Positions 27,886 to 52,787 of a stretch of 64,000 nt of DNA are shown piece by piece; the stretch's first letter is position 1, and every line of letters starts with the position of its first letter. Origin of the DNA: Candidatus Woesearchaeota archaeon. Its GTDB lineage: Archaea; Nanobdellota; Nanobdellia; Pacearchaeales; GW2011-AR1. The notes beneath the pieces were generated by a model. That model made no database searches and was not told the origin of the DNA. It was given only the letters and a program-made list of their open reading frames with translations. The stretch is from positions 10,712 to 74,711 of the forward strand of contig CAYITD010000004.1 in NCBI GenBank assembly GCA_964366325.1. Reading direction: 5' to 3'. The position numbers were made by a program, and so were the translations under genes.

Positions 27886-28226
27886 TCACTTTAAAGATAA
27901 GACCTGCAAACCATGTTTGTTTATTTCATCTTCTGTCCAAAATTTGATGTCTTTGGTTTTTAGTACATAAGTCCCTTCTTTTTCAATAACTCTTCCTGTA
28001 CAGTTTTTTATTTTTGGATCAAATTCTTTCAATACCAATATATCGCCAATATTACATTTGAAATCTGCCAATCTTAAATAAAAATACCTCACAGCTTGCT
28101 GTGTTTGGGATTTTTAAGCCTCAAACTGAGACTGATCATATGAACTCAGTTCGAGCAGTCAAAGTTCTTTTTTCAATTCAATATTTTTTCAAAATGCTCT
28201 GGCCAGGTTTTCTTTTCTATTTTCAT
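27886..28226 (-). pseudogene. DUF3850/ASCH-like gene disrupted by an 80-nt insertion and a TGA at 28173-28175
   Basis: MKIEKKTWPEHFEKILN*KKNFD|insert|LRLADFKCNIGDILVLKE; removing 28078-28157 re-fuses the frame. Confidence 0.85.
28078..28157 (-). mobile_element. 80-nt double-hairpin insertion element (subfamily 1, copy B)
   Basis: Shares TGCTCGAACTGAGTT, ATCAGTCTCAGTTTGAGGCTTAAAAAT and ATTTTTAT with 52693-52787; follows TTGAC; no TSD. Confidence 0.8.
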
Positions 28227-39163: not shown

Positions 39164-40015
39164 ATGACACAGAAAGAAACGAGCAAGATATTTACTAAAG
39201 GAGAACTGAAAGTTATGAACAAGAGACTTAGGAATGAGCGATTGACACAACAGGATTCAAATTATCTTAGTAAATTTATTAGGCCTAAACTAAAGGAGAT
39301 TAGGGAGACGAATGCGGGCTATTTGCTTGATAATTTGGAATACAATCAAAAGGCGTTGTCAATTGAAAACAAGATAAGAGAAGAGTTGATGAAGAAAATA
39401 AAGGAAGTGGACTCGATAACTCTCTATGGTTCTGTTGTTCAGAACAATTATAAGAAGTATAATGATATTGATATCTTAGTTTTGGTTAATAAGAAATTCT
39501 GGAATAAACTTGGAGAGAAGTATAGAACCATATTGGAAATTAAGAAAATGTTGAAGAAACGTTCTATTAGAGTTGATTTGGAGATATATTATAAAAATGA
39601 TTTTGAAAGAGCATATTTTTCTAGTCCTTCTTTGATTTATCAATTGAAAGATAGAAAAACTATTTATGGAAATCTAGATTTGTCTAATAAATTTGAGATA
39701 TCTAAAATTGATTTAAGGATGAAAGCAGATTATAGCATTATAGAAGAAGATTCTTCAAGCCTTGAGATATATAAAGCGATTAGGAATATAATTTTGATTC
39801 GATTGATTTTAATGAAAGTAGTTGATAATAATGAATTATATAAAACAATTAATGAAGAGCTTGGTGGAAACTTGGTAATGAGGTTAAAGGAGAATAGGGC
39901 TTCTTCTATTGATAGGAAAATAGCAATAATGCATTTGCATAACTTGTTGAAACTCACTTTAAAATATTTGGAGAAACAAAAATGGGAAAAAATCAAATTA
40001 TGTCAAGATTCTTGA
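39164..40015 (+). CDS. Nucleotidyltransferase-domain protein
   Basis: LYGSVVQ...NDIDILVL motif; last 4 residues contributed by inserted element. Confidence 0.8.
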   Translation: MTQKETSKIFTKGELKVMNKRLRNERLTQQDSNYLSKFIRPKLKEIRETNAGYLLDNLEYNQKALSIENKIREELMKKIKEVDSITLYGSVVQNNYKKYNDIDILVLVNKKFWNKLGEKYRTILEIKKMLKKRSIRVDLEIYYKNDFERAYFSSPSLIYQLKDRKTIYGNLDLSNKFEISKIDLRMKADYSIIEEDSSSLEIYKAIRNIILIRLILMKVVDNNELYKTINEELGGNLVMRLKENRASSIDRKIAIMHLHNLLKLTLKYLEKQKWEKIKLCQDS

Positions 40016-40356
40016 ATAGGAATCTTGAGCATCCAAAAGTTCAGAACAAACATAAAAACTTTTTGATAAGATCGTTAGGAAGATGCATTGGAAATGTGGT
40101 TATGCATAAATTGTTGTTAGAATACACCAACAAACCAGAATCTAAGGGTTTTATAAAAAATGAAATAAAGGAGTATAGTTCTGATGCATTTGAGAAGGCT
40201 CAAGAATTTAATTGGAATGTTGAAGATAAAGAAGAGATTAAAGAACTTGCGATTGAGAGAGTAAAAAATCTTAGTGAAGGCTACAAGGATGTTGTTTATA
40301 CAGATGAGAAAATGGAAAAATTTATTGATGAAACTATAGAAGAGATGATGCTGTGA
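39982..40356 (+). CDS. Hypothetical helical protein carrying a 22-codon in-frame element insertion
   Basis: Without 40002-40067 it reads MGKNQIIRSLGRCIGNVVMHKLL. Confidence 0.7.
   Translation: MGKNQIMSRFLNRNLEHPKVQNKHKNFLIRSLGRCIGNVVMHKLLLEYTNKPESKGFIKNEIKEYSSDAFEKAQEFNWNVEDKEEIKELAIERVKNLSEGYKDVVYTDEKMEKFIDETIEEMML
40002..40067 (+). mobile_element. 66-nt double-hairpin insertion element (subfamily 2)
   Basis: TTAT|GTCAAGATTC...GAATCTTGAGCATCCAAAAGTT...AACTTTTTGAT; 18-nt core identical to 48634 copy. Confidence 0.78.
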
Positions 40357-45746: not shown

Positions 45747-46337
45747 ATGCCTTTGCGAACAAATGATAATTTGGATGATTTACCTGATTTGCCTCCTTTG
45801 AGAACTCCTTTTTCTTCTAATAGCTCGATACCTTCTGTTACGGAGATTGAGGGTGAGGAGATACATAATCTTCCGTCTTTCCCAGATTCTCCTGCACACA
45901 ATAGTTTTTCGCAAGCAGTTATAAAAGAAGCGGTAAGTGATAGGCATGACACTGGAGAAAATGTTTTAGAGATGAGAGAGTGGACTCCTACGAAATTTAA
46001 AGATTCTCAGGGTGCAAGGCAACCTGACCAGAGCAAAGATTTTTTGACTAACAGCGACTATGTTGAGAGAAATAATTTTAACAAACCTATAGTTAGAAAC
46101 AGAGGTGATATGAACAAAGGCCCTGATGTTTTTGTTAAAATTGATAAATTTTATTCTGCTAAAAAAACTATTAGTGATGTAAAGGCTAAACTTGAGGAGA
46201 TAGATTCCCTTATCAATAAAGTTAGGGAAGTCAAATTGAGAGAGGAACAGGAGCTGTCTTCTTGGGAAAGGGAATTTAATGATATAAAGACTAGGCTCAA
46301 AGAAGTTACTGAGAATATATTTGAGAGAGTTGAGTAA
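45747..46337 (+). CDS. Hypothetical protein (Pro-rich N-terminus, coiled-coil C-terminus)
   Basis: PDVFVKIDKF...EEQELSSWE. Confidence 0.7.
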   Translation: MPLRTNDNLDDLPDLPPLRTPFSSNSSIPSVTEIEGEEIHNLPSFPDSPAHNSFSQAVIKEAVSDRHDTGENVLEMREWTPTKFKDSQGARQPDQSKDFLTNSDYVERNNFNKPIVRNRGDMNKGPDVFVKIDKFYSAKKTISDVKAKLEEIDSLINKVREVKLREEQELSSWEREFNDIKTRLKEVTENIFERVE

Positions 46338-46674
46338 AATGGGATCAGAATATGTTGGAATTTCTTCCCTTGATATGAATAGATCAAAGACAGTCGTTTT
46401 GCAGGTTCATCTTGAGATACTGAATTTGCTTAGGAGCTTTTCAGCCTATAAGGATTTGCGTTCGGAGGAGTTAACGGTAAAAGTTGCTTTGAAAAGCAAA
46501 ATAGGTGAGGCTTTTGATTTATTGCATAAACTAGATAAGCAACTTCCTCACCCTAAGTATAAGACTCCTTTATTTAGTCAAGAAAGTAAGAGAACTATAG
46601 AACGCAACTTATCTCTGGAAGAAGAGATTGAGGATATAACGAGAAAGTTACACGCTTTACAAACAGAGATTTAG
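46321..46674 (+). CDS. Hypothetical protein
   Basis: Overlaps upstream gene; coiled-coil end; likely ATG at 46339. Confidence 0.65.
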   Translation: MRELSKMGSEYVGISSLDMNRSKTVVLQVHLEILNLLRSFSAYKDLRSEELTVKVALKSKIGEAFDLLHKLDKQLPHPKYKTPLFSQESKRTIERNLSLEEEIEDITRKLHALQTEI

Positions 46675-46739
46675 AAAAGGGATTCAGAGATTTAGAAAAG
46701 GGATTCAGAGATTTAGAAAAGGGATTCAAAGATTTTAAA
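46664..46739. repeat. 21-bp tandem repeat, 3 perfect copies plus a partial
   Basis: CAGAGATTTAGAAAAGGGATT at 46664, 46685 and 46706. Confidence 0.95.
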
Positions 46740-46762: not shown

Positions 46763-48544
46763 ATGGTAAAAACTAGACAAGAGCTTATAGAATTTTATTT
46801 GGATTTTTTCAATAGAAACAACCATGCTATTATTCCTTCTGCTTCTATTGTTCCAGATAATGATTCTAGTGTTCTCTTTACTACTGCAGGCATGCAGCCT
46901 CTTACGCCTTTTCTTCTTGGTCAAAAACACCCTCTTGGAAACAGAGTTTGCAGTGTGCAGAAGTGCATAAGGACTGGAGATATAGAGGAGGTTGGAGATG
47001 AAGTTCACCATACTTTTTTTGAAATGCTTGGAAATTGGAGTTTTGGAGATTATTTTAAAGAAGAAGCTATAATTTATAGTTTTGAATTTTTAACTAAATT
47101 TCTTGGAATTCCTAAAGAAAAGCTGGCTGTTAGCTGCTTTTCTGGAGATGATTCTATTGAAAGAGATGAAGTATCTTTTGAGATTTGGGGATCTTTAGGA
47201 ATTCAAAGGGAAAGAATAAAATTCTTGCCTAGAGAAAATAATTGGTGGGGGCCTGCTGGAGAGACAGGACCATGCGGGCCAGATACTGAAATTTTTTATT
47301 GGACTAAAAAAGGTAAAGCTCCGAAAGTTTTTGATCCTATTGATAAAAATTGGGTCGAGATATGGAATGATGTTTTTATGCAATATGAAAAAACAAAAGA
47401 TCAAAGATATTTGATGCTGAAGCAGAAGAATGTCGATACTGGAATGGGTGTTGAGAGAACACTGGCTGCTTTGAATGGATTACAGGATAATTATAGGTCT
47501 TCTATTTTTCTTCCAGTTATAAAAGAAATAGAAAAACTCTCAAGAAAGAAATACGAAGGAAACGAAAAAGGAATGAGGATAATTGCTGATCATCTGAGAG
47601 CCTCTGCTTTCATTCTTGGGGACGATCATTCTATAAAACCTTCTAATATTGGAAGAGGTTATGTTTTAAGAAGGCTAATAAGGAGAGCTGTTAAATATGG
47701 TCTAGCTTTGGGAATAAAGGATAATTTTTGCAAGGTTGTAGGAAAAGTAATTATTGAACAGTATAATGATTATGATGAATTGAAAAGGAATAAAAAAATT
47801 ATTTTTGAGGAGCTGGAAAAAGAAGAGAAAAGGTTTAAGGAGACTTTAGAAAAAGGAATTAAAAAATTTGAAGAAATTTGCAAGTTAGCTTCTAATAAAA
47901 TATCGGGTGAAAATGCTTTTCTCCTTTTTCAAAGTTATGGCTTTCCGGTTGAAATGACTTTAGAGTTAGCTGAAGAAAAAGGAAAAGGAGTAGACTTGGA
48001 GAGTTATAAATTAGAATTTGAAAGACATCAGAAACTTAGCAGAACTTCTTCTGCAGGCATGTTTAAATCTGGATTGGCAGATAGTGGTGAGAAAACTACT
48101 AGATTACATACTGCTACTCACTTATTGAATGAGGTTTTAAGAAAAGTTTTAGAGGATAAGATAAGGCAAAGAGGATCAAATATAACTTCTGAGAGATTGA
48201 GATTTGATTTTAATTTTTCAAGAAAGTTAACTGATGAGGAAATTAAGGATATTGAAAAAATAGTTAATGAAAAGATAAATTCAGAACTTAAAGTAATAAG
48301 AGAGGAGATGGCTCTTAAGGAGGCTGTTTCTTCTGGAGCGCAATCTGAATTTGGAGCTAAATATCCTGAGAAAGTTTCCGTTTATACTATTTTGGATAAG
48401 AAAGAAAAGAAAGGGTGGTTCTCTAAGGAAGTTTGTACAGGACCTCACGTTGGGAACACAAAGGAAATAGGAAAGTTCAAGATAATTAAGGAGGAAGGAG
48501 TTGCTGCTGGAATAAGGAGGATAAAGGCGGTTGTTTTGGATTGA
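46763..48544 (+). CDS. alaS: Alanine--tRNA ligase, short form lacking C-Ala domain
   Basis: LFTTAGMQP, QKCIRTGD, HHTFFEMLGNWSFGDYFK, DTGMGVER, HTATH, CTGPH. Confidence 0.96.
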   Translation: MVKTRQELIEFYLDFFNRNNHAIIPSASIVPDNDSSVLFTTAGMQPLTPFLLGQKHPLGNRVCSVQKCIRTGDIEEVGDEVHHTFFEMLGNWSFGDYFKEEAIIYSFEFLTKFLGIPKEKLAVSCFSGDDSIERDEVSFEIWGSLGIQRERIKFLPRENNWWGPAGETGPCGPDTEIFYWTKKGKAPKVFDPIDKNWVEIWNDVFMQYEKTKDQRYLMLKQKNVDTGMGVERTLAALNGLQDNYRSSIFLPVIKEIEKLSRKKYEGNEKGMRIIADHLRASAFILGDDHSIKPSNIGRGYVLRRLIRRAVKYGLALGIKDNFCKVVGKVIIEQYNDYDELKRNKKIIFEELEKEEKRFKETLEKGIKKFEEICKLASNKISGENAFLLFQSYGFPVEMTLELAEEKGKGVDLESYKLEFERHQKLSRTSSAGMFKSGLADSGEKTTRLHTATHLLNEVLRKVLEDKIRQRGSNITSERLRFDFNFSRKLTDEEIKDIEKIVNEKINSELKVIREEMALKEAVSSGAQSEFGAKYPEKVSVYTILDKKEKKGWFSKEVCTGPHVGNTKEIGKFKIIKEEGVAAGIRRIKAVVLD

Positions 48545-48961
48545 TGATGAAAGAGAGAAAAAGCAAAAAAGGAATAAGGAATTTATTATTAATATCAGGA
48601 TTGTCTTTAGCGGGTTTTGTTGCATCTTCTTATGTCAAGAATTCTAAAAACACGCACTAAAGTGCGTGGAAATTCTTGAGCATCCAAAAGTCCAAACAAA
48701 ACTCAAGGACTTTTTGATTTAGTTGATAGAGTTTATGATAGGAAACCTGTTGAGAGTAATGGCGTTTATGATATTAGGATAGGCTCTTCTGATGGAAATG
48801 GGAGAAGGTTAGATGAGAGTTATATTATTAACTATAATGAGGATGGAACTGCAAGTGTTATTATTTTAGATGATGCTGGTTTGGGGAAAAGAGTTAAAGA
48901 AGATAAAGAAGTTCGTTTGATGAGTGTTGCTGGTGTTGATTTTTCTATTAAGAGAAAGTGA
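48544..48961 (+). pseudogene. 110-aa signal/TM-anchored hypothetical gene split by an 85-nt element
   Basis: MMKERK...GFVASSY|insert|LVDRVYDRKP...FSIKRK*; removing 48634-48718 joins the frames exactly. Confidence 0.75.
48634..48718 (+). mobile_element. 85-nt double-hairpin insertion element (subfamily 2)
   Basis: TTAT|GTCAAGAATT..CACGCAC-TAAA-GTGCGTG..AATTCTTGAGCATCCAAAAGTCC...GGACTTTTTGAT; no TSD. Confidence 0.82.
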
Positions 48962-52692: not shown

Positions 52693-52787
52693 TGCTCGAA
52701 CTGAGTTAATACTCCGCAGCTTGCTGCGATCAGTCTCAGTTTGAGGCTTAAAAATACCCCACAGCTTGCTGTGATTGGGATTTTTAT
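52693..52787 (+). mobile_element. 95-nt double-hairpin insertion element (subfamily 1, copy A)
   Basis: TTTAT|TGCTCGAACTGAG...CTCAGTTTGAGGC; inner hairpins CGCAG-CTTG-CTGCG and CACAG-CTTG-CTGTG; ends ATTTTTAT. Confidence 0.8.

Follow-up and report, generated by a model that had tools for sequence, protein, structure and literature searches.

The DNA just downstream of alaS in a Candidatus Woesearchaeota archaeon raises the question of why two partial reading frames, which would form one small gene if joined, are kept apart by 85 nt of non-coding sequence. The region lies in the 64,000-nt stretch that was analysed here (the window; NCBI GenBank assembly GCA_964366325.1, contig CAYITD010000004.1, positions 10,712 to 74,711 of the forward strand), and coordinates given without a contig name are positions in this window. 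An earlier note, made from the letters alone, had read nucleotides 48544-48961 as a hidden gene for a 110-aa membrane-anchored protein, split by a precise and scarless insertion whose clean excision would switch the gene back on. The 85 nt, taken as a whole, are best explained with a probability of about 0.85 as one copy of a family of small, non-coding, hairpin-defined mobile elements of Pacearchaeota/Woesearchaeota-like DPANN archaea. The insertion itself is a presence/absence difference at the DNA level between otherwise identical sequences, and it is polymorphic in nature.

One gene in two allelic states

The interrupted gene follows alaS (46763-48544, + strand) without a gap, the alaS stop codon TGA (48542-48544) overlapping an ATG at 48544, with a further ATG at 48547. 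Its 5' part (48544-48633, +) comprises 30 codons, with the start at either ATG 48544 or ATG 48547, and encodes MMKERKSKKGIRNLLLISGLSLAGFVASSY, in which a Lys/Arg-rich start leads into a hydrophobic membrane anchor, the last codon being TAT (48631-48633). The 3' part (48719-48961, +) continues with TTA GTT GAT for 80 codons up to the TGA at 48959-48961. When 48634-48718 is left out the two parts form a single 110-codon open reading frame (ORF; reconstruction P0001), with the insertion point between codons Tyr30 and Leu31, so that every coordinate proposed in the earlier note holds. Its remark that neither half appears in the ORF track is explained for the 3' part: the frame is open from 48680, and since it has no ATG, GTG or TTG before 48881, only a 26-aa piece of it enters the ORF lists. 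With stop triplets accounting for 6.8% of the + strand, a run of 93 open codons has P ~0.0014, and the same excision applied to 20,000 shuffles of the region never yielded an open frame of 110 codons. The joined frame exceeds chance.

Uninterrupted homologs span the junction, contrary to the outcome that would have refuted the note. Searching 1.84 billion representative proteins (the whole library) with HMMER, we found a 109-aa protein (P0002) that is 100% identical to the reconstruction from the second Met to the end, the public gene call beginning at the second ATG, and an 87-aa protein (P0004, 67% identical) that runs across the junction as ...VASSY|L(V/I)DR.... A six-frame search for the 110-aa protein in 60 related genomes gave no homolog, and a tblastn search of the region downstream of alaS at 80 loci was equally negative. 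Two ENA contigs from the Hainich groundwater well H51 encode P0002, one of 1216 nt from Hain_H51_01um_R2 (L176) and one of 623 nt from Hain_H51_01um_R3 (L177). With the 85 nt removed, the window is 100% identical to L177 and 99.75% identical to L176, the latter differing by three mismatches that lie near the contig end and outside the gene. The empty junction that the note had suggested looking for is therefore present in DNA, where it reads GCATCTTCTTAT|TTAGTTGATAGAG on both contigs. The filled allele was found, base-for-base identical, in Hain_H43_01um_R3 from well H43 (L178; ERZ1292626) and in the Logan assembly of ERR3858118 (L179). Judged by the sample names, and not through an accession link, these contigs fit the design of a study of 32 DNA metagenomes collected in triplicate on 0.2 and 0.1 µm filters from wells including H43 and H51, with assemblies under PRJEB36523 (PMC8672522).

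On a contig of a related species (L180) the P0004 gene lies directly 3' of alaS and the target GCATCTTCTTAT|TTGATTGAT is uninterrupted. Since the ortholog in this sister species is empty, the empty state is ancestral. The empty allele fits the proposal that the gene could be turned on again by excision, though this allele may simply never have been hit. The P0004 gene ends early, at 87 aa, where an IS630-type transposase gene (DDE_3, HTH_33; L180:533-1549, - strand) begins on the opposite strand, and for this reason the same small gene appears to have been hit by a different mobile element in the related species.

Consequences for the interrupted gene

With the element present, translation ends at a TAA inside it (48658-48660, +) and yields a 38-aa product. 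Since the copy has stops in all six frames and a length of 3n+1, the gene is knocked out in this strain, leaving the 38-aa stub. The public gene call on the filled allele (L178/L179) is a 119-aa protein (P0003) that starts at an ATG made by the junction (AT|G, 48632-48634) and in which TGA is read as Trp; gene calling with code 4 or 25 probably produced it as an artefact.

The reconstructed protein has no Pfam match. Residues 40-90 weakly match repeats of giant surface proteins (750-5700 aa, each with as many as 13 repeats) in which Big_13, cadherin, PKD and further Ig-like domains occur. In an alignment-free AlphaFold model of the intact protein, whose confidence is low (predicted local distance difference test score, pLDDT, of 42), only beta strands follow the anchor. 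From these features we infer that the gene encodes a small protein, restricted to this species group, that is anchored in the membrane and has a single Ig-like ectodomain. The gene is plausibly dispensable.

Two observations concern the neighbouring alaS. Its product is short (593 aa), with 55-64% identity to those of DPANN relatives and 50-55% to many bacterial enzymes (candidate phyla radiation, Clostridia, Spirochaetes), which suggests, as far as sequence comparison goes, that the gene is of bacterial type and that these groups share it or have passed it from one to another. Just 5' of it, at 46664-46735, stand three tandem 21-nt units (CAGAGATTTAGAAAAGGGATT) that overlap the end of the ORF at 46321-46674.

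Structure of the 85-nt copy

The element occupies 48634-48718 (+), is of the long form, and stands immediately 3' of the target tetranucleotide TTAT (48630-48633, +). It would fold into two hairpins. In the first, P1 (48634-48681, +), the outer stem is formed by GTCAAGAATT (48634-48643) pairing with AATTCTTGA-G-C (48671-48681), the G at 48680 being bulged, and it encloses a nested GC-rich hairpin, CACGCAC-TAAA-GTGCGTG (48651-48668). A conserved linker ATCC (48682-48685, +) follows, whose ATC is complementary both to the GAT at the element's 3' end and to AT (or GAT) in the left flank. The second hairpin, P2, and the terminal TGAT take up 48686-48718 (+), with AAAAGTCC (48686-48693), a 13-nt loop, GGACTTTT (48707-48714) and TGAT (48715-48718). 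P1 thus begins at base 1 of the element and P2 finishes 4 nt before its end, which reads ...CTTTTTGAT. Terminal inverted repeats are absent, the 5' end GTCAAGAA showing no match by eye to the reverse complement of the 3' end ATCAAAAAG.

A family of related copies

Further copies are present in the same genome: a 66-nt short form at 40002-40067 of the window, an 87-nt copy on contig C3 that is 92% identical to the studied one, a variant on contig C9 and a partial copy on contig C8. Another sequence at the end of contig C3 (C3:121303-121353; L029:2113-2164) ends in ..AATATGTCAAGAATTGTTTTTTTCGTAAACTCCCTACTTTAGTTCGTGAGAAA and resembles another copy's 5' half; the repeat has probably broken the assembly there, and the genome may hold more copies than were counted. 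In a BLAST search of 60 relatives with the element, clear copies (E < 1e-4) were found in 10 of the 21 genomes of the same genus; outside it, members of other genera in this family have them too, and so does a second family of the order. The relatives bear the names Candidatus Pacearchaeota or Woesearchaeota. Several of them hold dozens of copies, with near-identical bursts in some of them (G012, G015 and G020).

What the copies share is primarily a structure. The stem sequence of P1 varies between subfamilies, and it always pairs from the first base and keeps the bulged G; among 33 copies the changes are double-sided, as in GUCAAG...CUUGA-G-C versus ACCAAG...CUUGG-G-U. P2 has the form AAAAGUCC - loop - GGACUUUU, the linker is AUCC and the end is UGAT. 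Optional nested GC-rich hairpins (AAAC-stem-CTTTAG-stem) can occupy either loop and give lengths of 60-149 nt, most copies measuring 60-126 nt. No inverted ends were seen by eye across the copies. The left flank is strongly constrained: among 49 copies, position -1 is T and position -2 is A in all 49, position -3 is T in 32 and G in 11, and position -4 is T in 42. The family target is therefore T[T/G]AT with a T-rich run upstream, and the right flank is unconstrained. Since the flank is T-rich and ends in T[T/G]AT, the target mimics the element's own 3' end, TTTTTGAT, and at one locus (L078) a copy stands directly behind another copy's ...TTTTTGAT. The linker ATC can pair with the 3' GAT in 33/33 copies and with flank positions -1 and -2 likewise in 33/33, and pairing extends to position -3 in 10/33.

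Searches for a known counterpart were negative. At the gathering score Rfam 15 found only tRNAs in the window, and on the element itself, searched to E <= 10, the best E value was above 0.7. The core 16-mer, searched exactly in IMG/VR viral contigs, gave 15 matches, all of them chance occurrences inside unrelated coding sequence, and no real copy. A literature search found no description of such elements in DPANN archaea.

Other repeats of a similar kind were observed in this genome. A second family with the same two-hairpin plan and different letters is represented in the window at 28078-28157 (-) and 52693-52787 (+), one copy lying inside an ORF. Its P1 is CTCGAACTGAG..CTCAGTTTGAG, its linker GCTT, its P2 AAAAATCCC..GGGATTTTT and its end AT, and its nested hairpin CGCAGC(TT/AA)GCTGCG also adjoins the sole Y1 transposase gene of the genome (L029). 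Just upstream of the 87-nt copy on contig C3 lie two hairpin repeats (C3:68100-68250, -; GGTTGTC..ACACCCCAGAGGTTAATTCCTCAC..GACAA), the second of which ends in CTTCTGAT directly before that copy; these repeats resemble sequence beside the TnpA gene in L029.

Copies inside genes

A gene-context catalogue was made for 34 copies. Eighteen of them have a length of 3n, where about 11 would be expected, and stop-free frames are 2-3 times commoner in the copies than in shuffles. The second copy in the window is an example (40002-40067, +, 66 nt, without a nested hairpin and again after TTAT): its removal restores the TAA stop (T|AA) of a nucleotidyltransferase gene, and in its presence the downstream ORF 39983 reads through in frame with 22 extra residues. 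In the leucyl-tRNA synthetase of G020 a 90-nt sense copy, in frame and open, adds VEVFDKLRTSVRGTLRASKSPEQDTQGLFD in a variable region of the enzyme. Antisense copies that are in frame and open were found in a 2OG-Fe(II)-oxygenase-like gene (66 nt) and in a 355-codon ORF (87 nt). Judging from these lengths and frames, the copies inside genes, being mostly 3n and open, are presumably translated as extra loops.

Two copies are disruptive, and both are 85 nt long: the studied copy and one in G014 (L010), which splits a cupredoxin gene at GFHD|FVIEEF, with colinear uninterrupted homologs in five congeners. Open insertion in frame is found for the family as such and not for the studied copy, with its six closed frames. 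It seems that disruptive copies persist only in dispensable genes.

Alternative explanations

The joined frame and its neatly in-phase interruption could be accounted for in other ways, which the allele comparison and the family make improbable to different degrees. That the 85 nt were mis-assembled into the window at a repeat can practically be dismissed; repeats of the family do end contigs in some relatives (L057/L059), but identical filled junctions occur in three independent assemblies, namely the window, ERZ1292626 and Logan ERR3858118. It also seems improbable that the element entered as an open in-frame insert of 87 nt and later decayed within an old pseudogene, a change in the loop having made the TAA and 2 nt having been lost. 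The 87-nt copy on contig C3 would be a suitable starting point, since it is 92% identical to the studied copy, is open in the same frame and reads VKNSKVTHFSAWKFLSIQKSKKQTQGLFD, and the studied copy is in phase with the host frame at both ends. Against this, filled and empty alleles do not differ in their flanks over 623-855 nt, nor in any of the 109 host codons, which leaves no time for ~7 substitutions and a deletion in the element; only a very recent and precise excision as the origin of the empty allele would remove this objection.

Very improbable, in our view, is that the gene works in this strain because the element is removed from the RNA, by bulge-helix-bulge splicing or by a ribozyme, or is bypassed by ribosomes that land on the GAU at its end. 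It is true that both disruptive 85-nt copies are sense-oriented, stand between codons and leave the frames otherwise intact, and that copies after TGAT would have GAU as both take-off and landing codon. However, the empty allele is seen in DNA, in metagenome contigs. For splicing, the central pairs of a bulge-helix-bulge at the true junction would be U-G, C-U, U-U and U-U, of which only one in four can form, as a wobble; the element's own helices leave its two ends apart; and no Rfam family, ribozyme or other, matches it. A bulge-helix-bulge scan returned many loose candidates in this AT-rich stretch and none at the real junction. For bypass, the take-off codon UAU does not match the landing codon GAU and the next codon is GUC and not a stop, so that the studied copy differs from programmed bypass as in T4 gene 60 or the mitochondrial byp elements, where matching codons and a stop after take-off are found. 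Furthermore, since copies inside genes are enriched for 3n lengths and open frames and some are antisense, they would be translated and not removed.

How the element may move

Taking the 85 nt to be a mobile element, we propose that it would move as one folded DNA strand, in the manner of the IS200/IS605 'peel-and-paste' elements and their transposase-free derivatives, the palindrome-associated transposable elements (PATEs). The ATC that separates the hairpins would base-pair both with the GAT at the 3' end of the element and with AT or GAT in the target T[T/G]AT; this pairing would set both cuts right after ...AT, making insertion and excision seamless, with the enzyme supplied in trans. By analogy with these elements, such a single-strand IS200/IS605-like route with ATC as the guide is our tentative preference, at somewhat under even odds. 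It is consistent with the lack of inverted ends and of a clear duplication, with a fixed target on the 5' side only and with hairpins beside both ends. In IS608 a guide sequence pairs with the cleavage site, and the element's ATC next to the P2 stem resembles it. A single-strand route linked to replication could also leave a strand bias. Orientation is uniform along three contigs of G015, C14, C18 and C19 (6/6, 4/4 and 4/4; L203-L221), and in 23 of 32 copies, among them the three clear copies of the own genome (on C3 and in the window), the top strand is the G-rich one (p = 0.02, with gene-direction-corrected skew, itself a proxy on contigs of metagenome-assembled genomes). The strand of the neighbouring gene showed no link (14 vs 11). 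On contig C18 of G015 the gene-corrected GC skew was observed to change near 60 kb.

Several findings weigh against this proposal. The strand preference is modest and is opposed by three copies on one contig (C18). No autonomous parent was found in the own genome or among the TnpA/TnpB loci of the relatives: the sole Y1 transposase of the genome (L029) has unrelated GC-rich ends, and the linker, P2 and TGAT end are absent from ten TnpA and twelve TnpB loci of relatives. The distribution of the enzymes does not follow that of the element either, Y1 TnpA (PF01797) being present in 6 of the 10 same-genus genomes with the element and in 8 of the 11 without it, and TnpB (PF07282) being absent from the genomes richest in copies. 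P1 and P2 do not resemble each other, and P1 begins with the first base of the element; the left cleavage site of IS608-type ends is some 19 nt away from the hairpin. Lastly, an AT stands both just before the insert and at the insert's end, which leaves 0-2 nt of play in the boundaries and makes a 2-bp duplication of AT indistinguishable from no duplication. Of the precise and scarless insertion claimed by the earlier note, the precision stands, exactly 85 nt having been added, while 'scarless' is limited by this possible duplication. A two-copy TnpB element of G009 was considered as a parent and rejected, its mapped ends (...GGAGTTTAC) being unrelated.

The ambiguous AT would also suit movement of the same element as double-stranded DNA, either by a serine recombinase, as for IS607, crossing over at a 2-bp AT core, or by a DDE transposase that duplicates AT, as in every copy AT flanks an 83-nt remainder just as such a core or duplication would leave it. 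An IS630-type DDE_3 transposase adjoins the ortholog in L180. We nevertheless regard the double-strand route as unlikely. Inverted ends are lacking; the TA that IS630 duplicates is at odds with TGAT flanks; and genes of the resolvase family (PF00239) are absent from the own genome and from G001, G011, G012, G015 and G018, all of which bear copies. The T-rich target upstream of AT mimics the element's 3' end, and the strand asymmetry would not be expected. A further reading, which goes beyond the single-strand route set out above, is that the family represents a class, not yet described, of mobile elements in DPANN archaea that are defined by their structure and move as single strands, in which the ATC guide would read both the target and the element's own end, the enzyme would be none of Y1 TnpA, TnpB or a serine recombinase, and the copies in small surface-protein genes would act as reversible switches; as a whole we consider this conceivable and rather doubtful.

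Comparison with known elements

In the manner in which it enters genes, the family is closest to the Rickettsia palindromic elements (RPEs; Ogata et al. 2000), which are described in PMC10969869 as short palindromic selfish repeats, often in frame inside genes. Like them it is present in many copies per genome and lies in frame in unrelated protein genes, essential ones included, to which it adds a peptide (here the leucyl-tRNA synthetase and ORF 39983). Unlike the RPEs, whose hosts are bacteria and to which it shows no sequence relationship, the archaeal family is shorter, modular with nested hairpins and usable in both orientations, and the studied copy is not in frame and disrupts its gene.

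In appearance the family is closer to the PATEs, IS605-type derivatives of Haloquadratum (PMC3119063). Shared features are the lack of terminal inverted repeats, palindromes near both ends, no target duplication (with the caveat of the AT here), a length too short for a transposase, a short conserved oligonucleotide on the 5' side, strain-variable insertions and nested small hairpin modules. The family differs from PATEs in that its ends are unlike those of any IS605-type element found in the own genome or in relatives, no association with tnpA or tnpB is seen, and its two hairpins are dissimilar, the left one running from the first base.

[quoted passage not shown] The family resembles MITEs in being non-autonomous, multi-copy, shorter than 150 nt and structured, and in inactivating genes or fusing with them in frame, but it has neither terminal inverted repeats nor, the ambiguous AT aside, a duplication, and it falls outside the strict definition. 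A last comparison is with the REP/BIME/REPIN repeats, extragenic repeats of bacteria that are mobilised by RAYT (Y1) transposases. They too are defined by hairpins with a short conserved motif beside the stem and are probably processed as single strands by a trans-supplied HUH enzyme, whereas the archaeal family also inserts into coding sequence and showed no flanked RAYT-like gene. The family therefore works like the RPEs, being genic and often in frame, looks like the PATEs and could be tied to no transposase.

Significance

The two alleles provide a natural before/after pair for a mobile element of uncultivated DPANN archaea, with boundaries fixed to within 2 nt. The family enters coding sequence freely; its copies are tolerated in frame even in an aminoacyl-tRNA synthetase, and they knock out small dispensable genes. 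It is thereby a source of protein insertions, of differences between strains and of annotation errors, as seen here in a split gene that was missed and a spurious 119-aa protein. If movement should prove seamless in both directions, copies in small surface-protein genes would be reversible on/off switches that differ between neighbouring groundwater populations.

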